DNA of 63,842 nt, the filler included, from Collodictyon triciliatum (lineage: Eukaryota), in the NCBI GenBank assembly GCA_043381765.1. It is 33 parts of 33 records of this genome, joined end to end, with 100 filler letters (N's around TTAATTAATTAA, not from the genome) between each part and the next. Parts side by side here need not be neighbours in the genome. Positions count along the whole stretch, not along the records: positions 44,961 to 46,809 come from JBHJMP010010065.1; 32 more parts are not named here. The stretch is one strand, 5' to 3'. The notes under the pieces are model-generated. The model was not told where the DNA came from. It worked only from the letters and a program-made list of their open reading frames with translations, and did no database searches. Positions 3,021 to 47,956 of this stretch are shown piece after piece; the stretch's first letter is position 1; each line of letters starts with the position of its first letter. Position numbers and translations under genes: made by a program.

Positions 3021-3916
3021 TCAAATTTTATGGGTAGCCACTGACCTAGCAGAAGTAAAACACAGCGCAACTAGTACACTGCAGCGATTCTACACGTGCA
3101 GAGTTTGTCGGGTGGTGGTCATCTTGTAAATGGTGGAACATTCTGGATGATTCCAGAAGATTCTAGGGACACGATCTCATGGCTAAATTCCACTTCTGTC
3201 TGGACGGGGCGTTGACATTGGATTGCTAGTTTGCTGCGATTCGATATTTTTTAAAATAGGTGCAGGAAATGAAAGGCTTTGTTTGCTTTTGTGCCTTTCT
3301 GGATTCTAATAATTCCCATTTTCCTAAATTCTTTTTGTTTGAAACGTCACCAACCCCAATTTTTTTATCCATTTTGAGGAAAGCTTTACGCGGTGGACTC
3401 ATTTAAATTACACGCAAACGCAGTGGCAACTTTCGATTTCTAAAAGGTTATTACAATTCAACAGGCTTCACCCACACCAGCAAGAGACACCCAATCACGT
3501 GAAATACCCATGGCACGCAAATGGGCCATTGCACATTTCCCATGGGGCAACTGCTAGAAAATATAAGGGAAAAAAAAGAAAAAGAAAGCTACTCACGAAT
3601 CTGATTTTTGCTTTGTCTTTTGGAGACTTTGAGATGGCCTCTCCGTCCAGCGCATCCATCTATGACACACTTCGTACACAGACTGGGCTAGGTGACAGGG
3701 GCAAGAGACTTTTCTTTTTTACTTTTTTACTTTTTTACTTTTTTACTTTTTTACTTTTTTACTTTTTTACTTTTTTACTTTTTTACTTTTTTACTTTTTT
3801 ACTTTTTTACTTTTTTNNNNNNNNNNNNNNNNNNNNNNNNNNNNNNNNNNNNNNNNNNNNTTAATTAATTAANNNNNNNNNNNNNNNNNNNNNNNNNNNN
3901 NNNNNNNNNNNNNNNN

Positions 3917-4208
3917 TGAGGTGATGTCGTCTAAGTGCCATGTAATTTTTTATGAACAAGCAGAGCTCTTCGGCTTCTGCAAACTCCATGGAAAGAGCAG
4001 GTCGTTGCCCCAGAATCCGAAGTCGTAGAGCGCCATGGTGTTTGGGTGGTGCTACAGCTCGAACATGATACTGTCCTTTTTCTCGGCCAGAGCCTTTGGC
4101 AACTGCAAAGAGAGATATATCACTCACTCTTCTTGACGGTAAGGTGGTTCTCCTTCGACTACACCTCATGACCAAACCAAAGGCAGCCGTGCCCAAGATA
4201 TTTTTCAT
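3917..4208 (-). pseudogene. Protein kinase N-lobe pseudogene
   Basis: Spread over two frames: ILGTAAFGLVMRC (Gly loop), FAVAK, E..IMFEL*HHPNTMALYD (TAG at 4052-4054), then MEFAEAEELCLFI. Contains frameshifts and a stop. Confidence 0.65.
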
Positions 4209-5874
4209 GTTTCTCTCAATGTGTGTGGTCAAGAACTCCATGTTTTCTGAGAGGCATGTAGTAGGTGATGTGTCGTTTGAGTGAGATGTTTCATGTAGTG
4301 TAGTCAGGAAATGGATTACCAAGGATGAAATTTTTTTTACTAACTTGCTGATTCTTCGTTTTTATGCGTTTCTCAATGTTGCAGGTTCTATCCGGGATAT
4401 CGACCTGAGGGGAGTATGTTGTCCGTGTACCATCTCGTATGTACGTGTGCCTACATGTAGTAAAGTTGCAGAGCCTGGATGTGTTTCTAACTATTATGTC
4501 CTGTATTTTTCCGGAAAGGAAGTGATGAGATGCCACACGGTGCCCTTCTTATGGCTTGTCTGCAAGTGTGTTTCATCCAGAGCTTCAGATTTATGGGCGC
4601 TTGAATTTGTGTCGTAAGCCTCTCCATCTGCGCACATCACTGTACGACTCTTTTTATTCCAACATCAATGAAAATATATCGTGTTGTATTAGACACCAAA
4701 TTGTTTTAGTTTGTCAAAGATGGTTTTTCTTACGAGAATAAAACTTGTTCCGAAGTTGCATTTCATTATTTCTGTCAACGAGAAAACCCTGGCAGGTATA
4801 AGGTTAAAAATTTTTGATTTTTTAATTTAAATTGTAGCAGCTGTACAATCGCGGAGCCTTTAAAAGAGAAATTTCGGGAATCTACCAGATCTTTGCAAGC
4901 TCTTCAGAAATATCTGTTCGGTTAGACGTCATGACAAGAATGAGGCGGGGGCTGTGCAGGCGAGTGTGCTGGATTTTTGTGAGTGTCTTGCATACTTTTT
5001 ATTTGTTAAGTGAATGCGCGTGACAGAACACACAAAAAGAGCGGCACGGCTGCGTGAGGGACATAGATACTTAGAAGTGTTGTGAGGGGTGGGGCTGACT
5101 GTCGAAAAAGAAAAAAAATAGTTGAACAAATCAGTCTGATACTTGTTTTTAATTAAAAAAACTTTCCTGGTAGTAAATGTTTAGCTCCGACCTGACATCA
5201 AAATATATGCATACAAGTGAATGTGTGTTTTCATTCAGTCATCGTCCTTTCGTGCTGTTGGTAGCAGCATGCCTCACAATTTAACGGGTATTTCGTAGTG
5301 ATTGTTATGGTAAATAATTTTTTGCAATTAATGAATTTCAATATCTAATTAATTATCTATATTGCTGCTTTTACTTTGTGCAGGATGGGCGGTGTTGCCT
5401 TGGTTCGCTAGCCTTTATTTGGACGGACATCACTTGGACATGTCGGTGCACAAGTAAATATCTATCGATTAATTATCATTTTATACACTCATATCATTTT
5501 TTGGATTATTTATCAAGAATATATCTTGGATTTTCTATGCCTTATTTTTTTCTATCAGTCGGTTTTTTTATCAATAAGAATTTTGGTGCAATCGAATGGG
5601 TTGTATCGCACGCGTGAACACTAAAATATCTTACTAAATCATTTCCAACCCAATTGCACACTCGCATCGATTACGACGTGAAATCCAATAAATTGGTATT
5701 GAGCAAATGGTGGGATAAATGCAATTTTTCAAGGAGCTCATCCCATTCGACCAGGCAGACCAGTTAAGATTCTCNNNNNNNNNNNNNNNNNNNNNNNNNN
5801 NNNNNNNNNNNNNNNNNNTTAATTAATTAANNNNNNNNNNNNNNNNNNNNNNNNNNNNNNNNNNNNNNNNNNNN

Positions 5875-7731
5875 CACTTGTCTTTGTGAGCGGCTTGTTG
5901 ATGTCGATAGTGACTCCACCTTGGTGTAACTTGATTCGTGAGTCTGTGTGGCCCAGTATGTACGCATCAATCGCGTCGCCATCCGGGTCAGCTCCGTTCA
6001 GCACAAATGTTACATCTCTCTCTGCTTGGGAGTCTGGAATGAGTATAGATGACTCTTGTGCAGAGATAAAGGGTGAGAAGTTTACATCCTGCACAATGGC
6101 GCTGACTTCGTACTCAACATGCTTGTCACCATTGCTTATCTCAAATACCATAGACCCGCTCTGAGCACCCGTGGATGTGTAGATACTCGGCGCTTGTGGT
6201 GTGATGTATTCGAGTGTGACGCTGGCCGATGTGTCACTGGCGAGTACATCGCCTGTTGATAGTGGGTCGTTGTTGTACGGCAGATAAAGAGACCCGACGG
6301 TTGGTGCGGCTCTCAATTTGATGGTGACGTTGAGGTTGTCTTTGTCGCTTCCAGCCACAGTAATGCTCGTGGACATCCTCTCATCAATAGTAATCATTGT
6401 GGGTGTGCTTGATATCACTGGTATACGAGACACAAAGATGATGTTAAATACAACATCCACTACAGATGACCTCGAGTTGGACGTGTTCGCGCTGTCGATT
6501 ACAACAAAGCTGATGCTATCGTAGTTGTGTCCAAAGTCAGGTAGCAATCCCTCGCTCTCTGATGGCCCGACATATGTGAACGTCTCCGTGAACGAGGTTG
6601 TTGTAAAGTCGTAGCGTTGTCCGTCTGTTATGCGATTGCCTTTGTGTAGCACATTGCCTCTGGTTGTCGGCGGTATTGTTGCAATCAGCGTGACTGTGTC
6701 TACTAGGTCAACATCACTACCTCCAATTACAAAGATGCCTTCTCCATAGCGGCTTATCGTTACGACCGAGGATGATGTCGTGGCAACAGGTTGATGGTTG
6801 ATGTGGTTTACATTAATCACGACCGATTGCTTGTCAGATGTCTCTTTACCATCAGATACAGTGAACGTGAAAGATGTATATGGTGCTCCATACGTGACCT
6901 TCGGAGGTTTGAAGATGACTTTGTTACCCTTCAGCGGTTGATTCTCAGCTACCAAGATGTCTTCGTCGTAGAGACTTCCACGACTGGGTACGGATGAAAT
7001 GATGTATGTAAGTGGGTCTGCTGGGATGTCCACGTCGCTGCCAGTAAGAGTGATAACCAGCTCTCCGTCCTCGTCCATATCTACAGCCTGGGTATATCCC
7101 ACAGGTTTGTGGTTAAGGTCGAGCGTGATGAGGCTTACTGAGAAGCTCGATGAGTATTGGCTGTCCCTGACTGTAAATGTGAAGCTGTCGTTAAACGCCC
7201 GGTAGAGTGCTGGGGTGAAACGCACTTTGATTCCACTTCGAAGAAGAGGGTATGTTTCTTCTGCTACAATTGCTTCTCCAGTCTGCTGTATTATAAAATC
7301 AGAGTTTAGTGTGGCGACAGATGATGGCATGGTTGTAAACTGGATTGTTAGAGAATCGGCACTGTCCACATCTGTGCCCATTAGCGTCATGTCAGTGAAT
7401 GCATCTTCGTAAAGTATAACCAGCTTTTGAGCTGACGCCTGCGGTGGATGGTTGATGTGGTTCACAACTACGTTGAGGGTCTGCTCCGTTGAGTGTAACT
7501 CTCCGTCCTTTACGTAGTACCGAATCGATGTCAGAGGGTTGCCAAACGTGTACAGCGGTGGTGTATATGTCAGTGTCCACTGTCTATTCGCCCCTCCATA
7601 GATTGCGATGCTGCTTGATGTGATGGCGGTCCCGTTTGAGTCGGTCAGAGTACCGACACTTGGAATCCCACTGATATATGCACTCAGTAAGTCATCCTTG
7701 TTGTCGTCTTCTCCTCCAATCACAAACGTGA
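5875..7731 (-). CDS. Tandem Ig-like/cadherin-like (Big_9 / tandem-95 type) repeat surface protein, internal fragment
   Basis: Open across the whole contig. About 100-aa repeats with NHxP, GxDxD, GSLY and FTFTVxDG motifs. No introns. Confidence 0.85.
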
Positions 7732-7831: not shown

Positions 7832-9688
7832 ATAGAACAAAACACCCTCCAAGTTGGCACCAGTGAAGTCAGCACCATCAGCAACAGACTGTGACATGTC
7901 GGCATTTGGAATTTGAATCCCTCTGAAATCCATACCACTGAATGAAATGTCAGCATAGTTCAGAATTGTGATGGCATTTGACGCAGCTTGCGCTTTGCTT
8001 GCATCTGTCTTGGACTGCTCAATGATTGAAAACAGATTGTCTTTGTAGGCTTTGTCTTTGTTCACTTTTTCACTCAAATTGAGAAGAATAGCAGGTTCAA
8101 GCTTTTTATCCAGAACATTCGTCTTCATTTTCGATTTCATAACAGAATAGACAATATGGGAGAGCATGGTGCTTGGTGATTTTGCATCAAATTTTTCAGG
8201 CATAGAATTCGCGGCTTCAGAAGATGCAACGTTTTGAGCTTCAGTTGATGGTTGGGCAGAAGCTTTATTTTCCGCATCGGAACTATTGATTTCATCTTTG
8301 ATGTACTCAGCAGCAAAGAATTCGTAGAGCGATTTGTGGAAGAACTCATATGTTGTGGCACTAGATTTCTTAATGGGTGCACACCGCAGCACAAATATGG
8401 AATAAGAAGGCGTTTTCCCATCATCGAGGGTGTGGCCATGATTTGGATTGAAAAATTCTCCGTACTGTGGGTTAGTTGGTAGTTCACCTTCGACGTAGCA
8501 ATATTGAAGCGAAGGTTTTCGTTCTATTTCATGCATCAACTTTGCAATTTTTTTGCATTTTCTTCCCAAAAGGCTATCCAAATCCTCTGGCATTTTTTGC
8601 TTTAACGACAAATTGTTTTCAAGCTTTTCTCTTTCGCGTTCGAACCATCTCCTCGAAAACTTGTCCAGAAAATCTGTTCGCAGGATTTTTGCATTAAAAT
8701 TCGACTTCGACTCAAGTCTTTCCTTCAGTATGGACGGCAGGGTGGTGGCTGCCATGAAAATCATAAACGGAGTGACAGCCAATTCGTCCAGTTCTTTAAT
8801 TTTCTTCAACTCTTCCTCATACTTTTCTCCTTTTTCCCATCCTTCAATGGGATTTCTCGTAGCATATTTGTTGAAGTATTCGAGCCTTTGTTTAGTTTCA
8901 AAAGGTCTTAGATATATTTCATCCAGAGAGTATCCATGACTAGCTTTGGGTGCAAATAGCGATTGGTACAGAAATTTTTTGTCCAAAAACTGCTTGCGGC
9001 ATCCAATGACAAACTTGCAGTTGGGCCATTCTTCAAGCTTATTTGAAATATAAATGGATGTACCACTATCTTCAATCTCATCATAACCATCCAGGAAAAT
9101 GATGAATTTCATCTTTTTCAATTCTTTAACATGTTCGACTCGAAAATCAGAGTCTGGGATGTAGAAGCTGTTTTTACTCTCAGAAAGAAGCAATTCTTCG
9201 ATGGCGTTTTCTCTTGGCTTTACCAACGAAGTAAGCGCAACATACAAAGGAATATGTGTCCTTCCGTGTTTATATTTTTCCCAAAGCAATCGCACAATAT
9301 ACTGTTGTAACAGTGATTTTCCAGATCCAGAATCGCCAAGTATGAGCAGCACTTTTTCATTTCCAGATTTAAAAAAATTCACGATGTATTCTTGGGCATC
9401 AAAATTCTTTCCTTTCTCAGCAATTCTTTCGGCTTGGCCAGGAATATATGTATTAAATCGACTATTGAATTCTACGTTTCGAATGGTCTCCTCCTTAATG
9501 TTCTCGATGATGTCTTGAATCGTTCTTTCGTCTTTACCAGCCTTTTCAAAAAGTGCAGTAGGTAATGTTGACTCTTTTGGCTTATATTCTGCCATTTCTT
9601 GCTTTTTTGATTCCACAAATCGATTAATAACCTCACTTTTCAACCATTTTTCATGACGTGTGATATACTCGATTAATTCGCGGACTTT
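7832..9688 (-). CDS. NACHT (STAND) NTPase with pentapeptide repeat, NLR-like, internal fragment
   Basis: Open across the whole contig. Walker A LLILGDSGSGKS, Walker B IFLDGYDE, CRKQFL, winged-helix FFHKSLYEFFAA, then AASNAITILN..SFSGMDFRGIQIPNADMS..ADFTGANLEGV. Confidence 0.92.
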
Positions 9689-44755: not shown

Positions 44756-45733
44756 CTATGTATGTATGTATGTATGTATGTATGTATGTATGTATGTATG
44801 TATGTATGTATGTATGTATGTATGTATGTATGTATGTATGTATGTATGTATGTATGTATGNNNNNNNNNNNNNNNNNNNNNNNNNNNNNNNNNNNNNNNN
44901 NNNNTTAATTAATTAANNNNNNNNNNNNNNNNNNNNNNNNNNNNNNNNNNNNNNNNNNNNTTTCTTTTTTTCTTTTTTTCTTTTTTTCTTTTTTTCTTTT
45001 TTATCTCTTTTTTCTTTCCTTATTTATTTCTTCGGTCTAATTCAGCCTGTAAATAGATTAACTTCATTGCAAAGGTTGTGACGAACTTGGTTTTATCCCT
45101 TTCAAGGCACAACACTTTTTATACAACGAAAGTGTACCCATATATATAGCTTTATTGCACAGACAACCATCAAATTAAATCTGGGTCGACGAAAACAGGA
45201 GCTTTGGTGAATCCAAGAAACAACCTGAATAAAATAATAGTTTAATTAGCATACAATAAGATAAAAAAATACTTAATAATCTCATATATTCCTTTAATTA
45301 ATTTTATTTTATTTTTCATTTATGTAATATTATCATTAAAATTCAAAAATGACAAACAAGTCCTTGTCTTGGCCCAGACAGAACCCACCCTATAAACCTG
45401 CCATCAAACATGCATCTCAAATAAGCTACTATCCACACTTGCGGCGGTAATCATGTTCTTCGGGGCCAATATGATGACTTTCAGTCGCAATGATTATACG
45501 GCCGTCCTTTCGAACTCGCCGAATCGGCTCTCAGTGTTTTGTTTCAAATCACTTGTGAAAAAAAACTTTGTGTGTTTGTTTGCCACAAAGCACACATTTT
45601 GAGAGTCTCGGTAGATGCTTAATTTTACATAAATTGATTTATGCAGTATAATTAAATGACCTATCGACTAAAGTTTTATTAAATTGAAAACTCAGTGGTT
45701 TTCTAAAGGAAAAAGTAAAACAAAGACTTTCAT

Positions 45734-46809
45734 ATGAAGAAAAGAAAACGTCTTGAGTTTGAGAATCTAAAGTATGTAAAACCAGACCATCGAAATGTGA
45801 AAACATCCCTAAAGTTGATTGTAAAGAATCCGGGCGACTATGACAAAATCAACGATGTGGTTTTATTGTGTCATAATTTGGTTACCGAAACTTATCTGTT
45901 TGCAAGATGTTACATACTGAATTCACAACAACTCCCAACAATCGATGAAATGTTTTTTTGTACGCTTAAAGACAGTCGGAAAAGTTTCATTAGACACGCA
46001 AGTTTAAAAAAAAAAACCCAGAAATGAGCAAAGACATGACAACTTTTTATTTCTATGATTTTCAATTCCTTTTGTCCCGAGAAGAACGCTTTCCGTTGGT
46101 CGGATTGTCTCATGTATTACCGTACTTGGCGAAGCAAATGCTAACAGCTTATCATAATAACATTAAGGAGCACTTTGCAAAGAGGTTACTGCGCTTTATA
46201 AATCAAACAGTTCCTAAAGATGAGAATGTTACGGAAGTTGTTTAAAAGGCAGAGTTACGAAAGTTTTTTTTTTTAAAAAAAAAAAAAGCCATCTTCAAGA
46301 AACTCGAAATGCCGGAACAATATAAAGAATGGACTAAAATACATCTGCATCATATCATTCCCAGTGATATTGTAAATGGTATCGAATATGACGCCAAAGT
46401 CAACCCAAATAAGTACACTCCATGTCTGATTTACATGAATCGCATTTTTGAGGATATTGGAACCAAACTGGTTCGACCAATCTCTATAAGAACTACCAAT
46501 ATACCATGTTATATTGCTCTAGATACTGCATGTTTGGTAGATATATTAGTATCATCTGGTAAATCATCATTAAAGAAGAATATATCAGGATGCAAAGAGA
46601 CCCTATGGGGTGAGTTCTTTGAAATGAAGAAGAGGGTCTTTCATCAAAGAGACTTCAGTTTTAAATACATGATATAAACAGACAGCATGACGGGGTCATT
46701 ATTGTTTGAAAAGAAAGGCATTTCAAATTCAAAATTCAAGTATAATAAACCGCGCCCCCCCCCCCCCCCCAACAGCAATTCATTGTCAAGAGTCACACTT
46801 TAGGAAAGT
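45734..46809 (+). pseudogene. Fanzor1-like (eukaryotic/giant-virus TnpB homologue) gene, decayed, cut by the contig end before RuvC
   Basis: VKTSLK..INDVV..C..LV..TYLF; L.YLAKQMLTAYHNNIKEHF..L.RFIN; YDAKVNPNKY..CLIYMN; IRTTNIP.YIALDTA.L; W..FF..K..F..F.YMI*TDS..SLLF. One frameshift near 46006-46024 and stops at 46243 and 46675. Confidence 0.75.
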
Positions 46810-47114
46810 NNNNNNNNNNNNNNNNNNNNNNNNNNNNNNNNNNNNNNNNNNNNTTAATTAATTAANNNNNNNNNNNNNNNNNNNNNNNNNNNNNNNNNNN
46901 NNNNNNNNNAAACACATAAAACACATAAAACACATAAAACACATAAAACACATAAAACACATAAAACACATAAAACACATAAAACACATAAAACACATAA
47001 AACACATAAAACACAACACAACCACATAAACCACAACACAACCACATAAAACACATAAAACACATGAGACAAAAACAAAAAGAGAAACCGCAAAGCACAG
47101 AAGGCAACCAGGAA

Positions 47115-47956
47115 ATGGAGAAGCAGCCGACTCTGAGGCCACTGGAGCGAGGCGCCATCTCGAGGAAAGCCACTGTGCAGATCCCGCGAGAGCAGCCGCT
47201 GCTGGGACACTGCCTGGTGGCGCGGGAGACGGAGGCGGGGTTCGAGGCGGGCGAGTGGGTTGCGACGTACGCGGGGCCGGTCTCTGCGCAGCCGTCGCGC
47301 TTCTCGGTGCAGGTGTCGCCGACAGAGCACATCACGGACGAGGGCCTGGCCAAGTTTGCCAACCACTCGTGCCGTCCCACGTGCCGCCTCGTCCTCGCGC
47401 CACGCGCCTTCCCGCTCGCCGTGCTGCTTGCGCGCCGCCGCATCCGCCCGGGCGAGGCCCTGACCTTCCACTACGGCGCCTCCGAGTGGCACATGGACGA
47501 GCCCTTCGCCTGCCTCTGCGCCGCCCTGGATGCGCCGCCTGCTGGTGAGTCCACGGCCCGCCTTTGCCGCTCCACTCTGCGCAGCCCCGCCTTCTGACCG
47601 TCTTGTGTCTGTGTGCAGCCTCGGATGCGGGCGCGTCGCTCCATGATGAGGCAGAGTGTCTCGGCCGCATTGCGGGCCTGCAGCATCTGCCCCTCTCCAA
47701 GCAGATGGCCCTGCGTCCTCTCATGCCCGCGTATCTGAGGCGGCATGTCGACTGGCGCGTGGCTGCCGGCCATGGCTTGGATGCAGACTCCGTGGCTCTC
47801 CACATCGTCCCGCCCGCCCATGCGGACGACGCGCCCACGGCCGACCAGCTGGAGGAGGAGCAGCTCTTCTACCAGACCCTGGAAAGGTATCCCGAGCTGA
47901 TTCCCAACCACGATGAGGAGAATCTAGAGGCGGAGGCGCTCGGGCAGACCCGCTGA
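47115..47956 (+). CDS. Small SET plus post-SET domain methyltransferase (exons 47115-47544, 47619-47956)
   Basis: GHCLVAR..GE; FANHSCRP; IRPGEALTFHYGASEW.M.EPFACLC...CLGRIAG. A GTGAGT...TGCAG intron keeps the frame. Confidence 0.9.

Follow-up and report, generated by a model that had tools for sequence, protein, structure and literature searches.

A decayed, truncated Fanzor1 gene at a contig end in the Collodictyon triciliatum assembly, from a multi-copy element family

The window, the whole stretch of DNA analysed (63,842 bases), consists of 33 contigs of ~1.85 kb, apparently sorted by size and separated by N44-TTAATTAATTAA-N44 linkers. One contig, at 44961-46809 (1849 bp, about 31% GC), carries on its plus strand, at 45734-46752, a gene part that covers ~336 of the ~648 residues of a Fanzor1 protein, the N-terminal half. 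Three open reading frames make up most of it, at 45734-46027 (ORF1), 46024-46245 (ORF2) and 46309-46677 (ORF3); they exist as the initial annotation had listed them, ORF2 and ORF3 in one frame and ORF1 in another. Fanzor1 residues 1-75 are encoded in the ORF1 frame at 45734-45958, as evidenced by hhalign and by tblastn with residues 1-77 of the relative P0158 (65% identity). ORF1 contains a basic patch, KKRKR, at 45737-45751 and also holds the first WED strand, KTSLK. Residues ~90-336, comprising REC and the second part of WED, are encoded in the ORF2/ORF3 frame at 45997-46752, as evidenced by a family profile, tblastn with P0004 and P0158, and PDB alignments. Between these two parts lies a scrambled zone at 45953-45997, where three-frame comparison with the relatives P0008 and P0158 reveals at least three frame changes. 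A C16 run and the contig end occupy 46755-46809; missing from the contig are the half with RuvC and the zinc ribbon, the region of the omegaRNA and the element's right end. The contig thus stops, as had been noted, at 46809, ahead of RuvC and the right end.

Window composition ranges from 22% to 47% GC per 2 kb. Given this spread and the linkers, no feature should be taken to continue from one contig into the next, and more than one organism may have contributed contigs. Two contigs are filled by intronless minus-strand ORFs, one at 5875-7723 with bacterial Ig/cadherin-like domains (Big_9, E 7.8e-17) and one at 7832-9643 with NACHT and pentapeptide repeats (E 1.8e-9 and 5.9e-5, respectively). 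Such architectures are typical of filamentous bacteria, and both ORFs may come from bacterial companions in the assembly. The contig at 46910-48758, adjoining the Fanzor contig in the window, is GC-rich and quite unlike it in composition; it starts with a tandem 8-mer, (AAACACAT)n, carries a SET-domain ORF at 47064-47597 (PF00856, E 2.9e-8) and finishes with a short repeat rich in T and G. The 32 contigs other than the Fanzor contig hold no further Fanzor piece.

Similarity to Fanzor proteins, originally claimed from the motif order, was recovered by searches with the ORF2 and ORF3 read-through (P0001, 262 aa, the table-6 translation of 46024-46809). In plain phmmer against the PDB this query matched three solved Fanzor1 proteins, Parasitella parasitica PpFz1 (9cf0, E 3.2e-9), Guillardia theta GtFz1 (9cer, E 3.8e-9) and Spizellomyces punctatus SpuFz1 (8gkh, E 3.8e-5); at E<=1e-3 it matched Fanzor1 only among all PDB chains. 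Against 1.84 billion protein representatives it found 933 proteins at E<=1e-3, 375 of them at E<=1e-10, with a best value of 3.4e-63. Full-length relatives are 600-700 aa long, and the read-through aligns to approximately residues 100-340. A family profile (A1) was assembled from 40 full-length relatives picked among the best 150 of the 933. A six-frame search of the contig with this profile gave E 5.7e-76 (profile 82-336, corresponding to 45979-46752) and 1.4e-14 (ORF1 frame), and beyond those two matches only noise. ORF1 alone had no PDB match below E 0.05; hhalign placed it on the A1 profile with a probability of 98% (E 1.6e-13), over ORF1 residues 17-75 only. Pfam searches of the ORFs and the read-through returned sub-threshold matches only (Ig_ADGRF3, E 0.017; HEPN_Swt1, E 0.01-0.03), and PF26935 (DUF8286) was listed for relatives by two other tools, yet went unreported in the Pfam scan of the ORFs.

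The domain order of the fragment, WED-REC-WED, is colinear with the solved Fanzor1 proteins over 8gkh chain residues 522-729 and 9cer chain residues 528-694. The former correspond to SpuFz1 128-335, with a 394-residue tag offset derived from the alignment. The TDG strand near the end of the fragment is equivalent to SpuFz1 residues 328-330. Saito et al. assign SpuFz1 R315, R317 and Y345 to WED (PMC10432273). The strand lies between R315/R317 and Y345, which bears out the earlier reading of the motif order as the pre-RuvC half of Fanzor1, a reading also supported by the PDB alignments and profile columns. By sequence comparison the fragment comprises WED-REC-WED, and RuvC falls beyond the contig end. 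The motifs KTSLK, YLF, YHNNIKEHF..RFIN, YD..NPNKY..IYM and R..IPCYIALDT are present as described, but the last motif, claimed as TDG, reads TDS in this copy. Residues 1-336 of P0158 are colinear with the gene part by tblastn, and colinearity with intronless relatives over ~336 residues agrees with the proposal of a single intronless gene. The first six residues of ORF1, MKKRKR, resemble a nuclear localization signal (NLS) by eye, and P0004-P0007, P0157 and P0158 have comparably basic N-termini. A predicted NLS is reported in about 60% of Fanzor ORFs (PMC10530073), making it a frequent rather than a defining feature.

The half that is missing here can be followed in the full-length relatives. 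The A1 profile aligns end to end with SpuFz1 (E 9.8e-101, profile 8-605) and matches PpFz1 and GtFz1 in the PDB at 2.5e-98 and 1.6e-81, respectively. The next PDB match after the Fanzor1 trio is LaTranC at 4e-3, and TnpB and Cas12 chains are absent at E<=0.01. Counted along the alignment and corrected for the tag, DPGK, DEfrTS and nRDlN of the profile lie opposite SpuFz1 D383/N385, E541 and D606, residues that coordinate two Mg ions according to Saito et al. (PMC10432273). Within A1, D372 is invariant, the Glu, T533/S534 and R580/D581 are at least 90% conserved, and D372 and T533 are spaced by 161 residues. Bao and Jurka (2013) describe a Fanzor motif of the form D-X(125,275)-[TS]-[TS]-X-X-[C4 zinc finger]-X(5,50)-RD (PMC3627910), which the conserved C-terminal residues of A1 fit. 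The C-terminal motifs of P0158 read DPGK...EFRTSKLCCNC...TRD. The Fanzor assignment had been tied beforehand to the presence of RuvC in full-length homologues; these keep the Asp/Glu/Asp columns, and the assignment stands.

Comparison with known systems places the fragment within Fanzor1. It shares the REC/WED region with SpuFz1, GtFz1 and PpFz1, and its full-length relatives share their Asp/Glu/Asp residues. The fragment differs from these three proteins in being only ~25-35% identical to them (by eye), truncated before RuvC, frameshifted and interrupted by two stops. TnpB proteins (IS200/IS605, IS607) and Cas12 have a RuvC/zinc-ribbon core of common ancestry with Fanzor1, and some full-length relatives weakly match PF07282, Cas12f1-like_TNB (P0020, E 1.4e-6; three of the ten scanned reach E<=0.01). 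However, the REC of TnpB is short (about 100 aa), whereas the REC/WED region of the fragment exceeds 300 residues. Saito et al. (PMC10432273) describe the enlarged REC, which is in the half preserved here, as inserted in comparison with TnpB. Membership in prokaryotic TnpB is ruled out by this long REC/WED region together with the lack of a TnpB chain at E<=0.01. By analogy with characterized Fanzor1 proteins, an intact family member would be a nuclear protein of ~650 aa whose basic N-terminus resembles an NLS. WED and REC, the part kept here, would bind the heteroduplex of guide and target and recognize the transposon-adjacent motif (TAM). An omegaRNA transcribed at the element's 3' end would guide the protein, and the C-terminal RuvC/zinc-ribbon lobe would then cut matching DNA flanked by the TAM.

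The Fanzor1 copy is part of a multi-copy repeat. Three runs, none of them an RNA run, contained related pieces: X1, labelled as an aquaculture metagenome, and X2 and X3, labelled as organism A and organism B and belonging to one study. These are Logan contigs, with 5-8% of sampled words, and are data from relatives, uninformative on this particular copy, its expression or its habitat. At a likeness of at least 80%, X1 yielded 7 pieces and X2 and X3 yielded 288 each. Pieces in the identity classes 99+, 95-99, 90-95 and under 90 number 24, 58, 109 and 97 in X2 and 25, 61, 109 and 93 in X3. Cover by run contigs extends from 45023 to 46758, leaving the first 62 and last 51 bases of the contig uncovered. 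The closest intact relative found is P0158, a 648-aa protein on a 2.6-kb ENA contig, which is 53% identical to the Fanzor1 copy over its residues 77-336; identity is higher over residues 1-77, as given above. The fragment P0002 is 82% identical. Together, the 288 pieces in each of X2 and X3 and the intact 648-aa ENA relative indirectly support the view that the source genome hosts a Fanzor1 family. The label of transposon copy rests on the copy number and on the known biology of the family.

The repeated unit extends upstream of the gene. A non-coding stretch at 45023-45733 (+), ahead of the ATG, is repeated with the gene according to run-contig cover, and single contigs bridge into the ORF from 45427, 45453 and 45497, which indicates that a minimum of 300 bp preceding the ATG travels with the gene. 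Some X2 and X3 copies lack 163-164 nt within 45529-45697 (joints 45533>45697 and 45534>45699). The direct repeat CTCAGTG (45529-45535 and 45691-45697) bounds this stretch, which could be a small nested insertion with target duplication or the site of a microhomology deletion. Rfam gave no match on the Fanzor contig at E<=1. Repeat searches of the same contig revealed no credible terminal inverted repeat: what they returned were paired homopolymers and weak arms with 73-93% complementarity. Matches of the P0158 C-terminal part upstream of the ATG (tblastn, E 0.5-6.5) were attributed to chance, since an unfiltered search with the family profile finds no C-terminal remnant.

More distant kin are common on viral contigs. 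Of 546 pattern-matched stretches on IMG/VR contigs (many of these contigs named GVMAG), 340 encode a relative at an identity of 40% or less, and the viral relatives are 32-40% identical to the Fanzor1 copy; of 262 such stretches on JGI and other metagenome contigs, 113 do so. The atlas clusters nearest P0004 are 92-100% viral (Nucleocytoviricota) and carry PF26935/PF07282. On L001, which is part of a 173-kb IMG/VR contig, a DDE_3 transposase (PF13358, E 1.5e-15) and a 634-aa Fanzor1 point away from each other across 330 bp (L001 positions 3345-6599), and a large ORF adjoining the pair resembles an mRNA capping enzyme, a label given by eye. A DDE_3 homologue occurs in the fetched flanks of at least 25 of 80 viral loci and at least 34 of 80 metagenome loci, counts that are lower bounds because many flanks are short and that include some contigs present in both sets. 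In nearly all such loci the homologue is upstream of the Fanzor gene and on the opposite strand. Bao and Jurka (2013) describe PGv-1 and PUl-1, Fanzor1-in-Mariner elements of giant viruses (PMC3627910), and the distant kin found here are likewise mostly on giant-virus contigs, often with DDE_3. The kin also agree with Jiang et al., who associate one Fanzor1 clade with Mariner/Tc1 (PMC10530073). Tc1/mariner-type Fanzor1 elements nevertheless differ from the present copy, which has no trace of a transposase in the 770 bp upstream or in the window: the L001 transposase gave only chance matches (E>6) across the whole window and none on the Fanzor contig, including those 770 bp.

These kin raise the question of whether the fragment is itself giant-virus DNA, as a viral contig or an integrated segment, rather than part of a cellular transposon family. 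The abundance of relatives at no more than 40% identity on giant-virus contigs, the largely viral clusters around P0004, the capping-enzyme-like ORF beside Fanzor on L001 and the AT-richness of the Fanzor contig are all consistent with that origin. However, hundreds of diverged pieces, from 80% to 99+% identity, are present in two organism-labelled runs and point to genomic repeats. Moreover, the closer relatives P0002, P0003, P0008, P0157 and P0158 (53-82% identity) are on NCBI and ENA contigs without a viral label, and the 1.85-kb contig carries no viral hallmark gene. A viral origin for the fragment is accordingly improbable. Taken together, the protein matches, profile alignments and repeat structure argue that 45734-46752 is, very probably, what is left of a decayed Fanzor1 gene, its 5' half only, truncated by the contig end and belonging to a eukaryotic multi-copy transposable-element family.

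The copy is dead, as first judged. It has two TAA stops, a scrambled frame, a T11A13 insertion and a contig end before RuvC. Less accurate was the initial account of the frame, which placed a single frameshift at an A-run: the frame changes three times or more, and it does so 5' of the A11 run (46006-46016). Both hhalign and tblastn with P0004, P0005 and P0158 trace the ORF1 frame no further than 45958; the ORF2 frame is solidly homologous from 45997 on, still ahead of the A11 run. The 38 nt between match piecewise in all three frames (..EMFF, FLYA, LKTVGKVS.. and ..KFKKKNPEM). We infer that the first frame change is in or at the T7 run at 45953-45959. The second is a missing T at 45965-45967, a base carried by 12 run contigs (7 in X2 and 5 in X3), and the third precedes 45997, outside any homopolymer. 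The net shift across the zone is one base, which explains how it was mistaken for a single frameshift. A relative from NCBI, P0008 (82% identical, on a 714-bp contig), begins with ~43 residues that represent an out-of-frame Fanzor N-terminus upstream of the same T-run; the entry is an ORF call on another frameshifted member, and the present copy is thus not the sole damaged one in the family.

The two in-frame TAA stops are located as initially described, at 46243-46245 and 46675-46677. The first replaces a residue that is Lys in P0002, in a column that is variable in the family. The second occupies a Gln site ahead of the conserved TDG strand; in alignment A2 this column is Gln in five of the six covering relatives and Arg in the other. 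Compared with P0002 and P0158, the low-complexity T11A13 tract at 46264-46287 adds 5-7 codons while keeping the frame. At 46684-46686, Ser replaces the nearly invariant Gly of the TDG strand in WED (G320, at least 90% conserved in A1). Across the fragment, 13 of 14 invariant or nearly invariant A1 columns, counted by eye, are retained, suggesting a recent rather than an ancient death. Several lesions fall in or beside homopolymers (T7, T2/T3, T11A13 and C16), so that errors of sequencing or assembly may account for some of the damage. As read from its sequence, with the frame broken after codon 75, two nonsense codons, a homopolymer tract inserted and the catalytic half off the contig, the copy cannot make the Fanzor1 protein.

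If homopolymer errors accounted for the frame changes and the organism used a ciliate-type nuclear code with TAA read as Gln, the gene could be intact in the organism. The TAA at 46675 does fall on a family Gln column, as such a code would give, table 6 opens the ORF2/ORF3 frame from 46024 to the contig end, and long homopolymers are plentiful on the contig. Against this, every covering run contig reads CAA at this codon, with C rather than T at 46675 (1 of 1 in X1, 15 of 15 in X2 and 15 of 15 in X3; 31 of 31 overall), so the TAA is private to this copy. Would-be Gln codons in the homologous part are CAA seven times and TAA twice by our own count, and other window contigs, possibly from other organisms, carry standard-code ORFs of 355-634 aa, including a 375-aa PH-domain ORF. 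In addition, no genetic code explains the frame changes, the third of which is outside a homopolymer, and there are substitutions beyond homopolymer error, such as the TDG Gly to Ser. An intact gene is very improbable, and the reading as a decayed copy is retained.

It can be dismissed that the ORFs arose by chance or have nothing to do with Fanzor, or that ORF3 alone encodes a domesticated short protein: the ORFs have no significant Pfam family (HEPN_Swt1 is best, below the cut-off) and ORF1 alone lacks a PDB match at E<0.05, but the E values reach 3.4e-63 in the protein library and 5.7e-76 with the family profile, and the reading is colinear over 336 residues of the intact P0158, with its stops inside conserved domains.

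As a decayed gene, the copy is an ordinary truncated pseudogene in a well-described, widespread Fanzor1 family, where remnants of this sort are common, and holds no lessons on mechanism. Recognition of the Fanzor1 motifs from raw sequence alone proved sound, and one more host joins the long list of eukaryotes that carry Fanzor1. The high copy number and the near-identical pieces make it plausible that the source organism has intact copies, which may be active. The fragment is thus of value as a probe: the family is high in copy number, near-identical pieces are present in two runs, and an intact relative exists at ~60% identity, so a search of the full assembly could recover active nuclease/omegaRNA pairs. 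It is also possible, although this stronger view is held only tentatively and is less likely than not to be right, that the dead copy marks a very abundant and recently active Fanzor1 family, spread over two differently labelled organisms and an aquaculture metagenome, with deeper kin on giant-virus elements of the Tc1/mariner type. If intact copies with omegaRNA exist there, they would represent a new, active and possibly virus-exchanged Fanzor1 lineage that may be usable as a compact editor.
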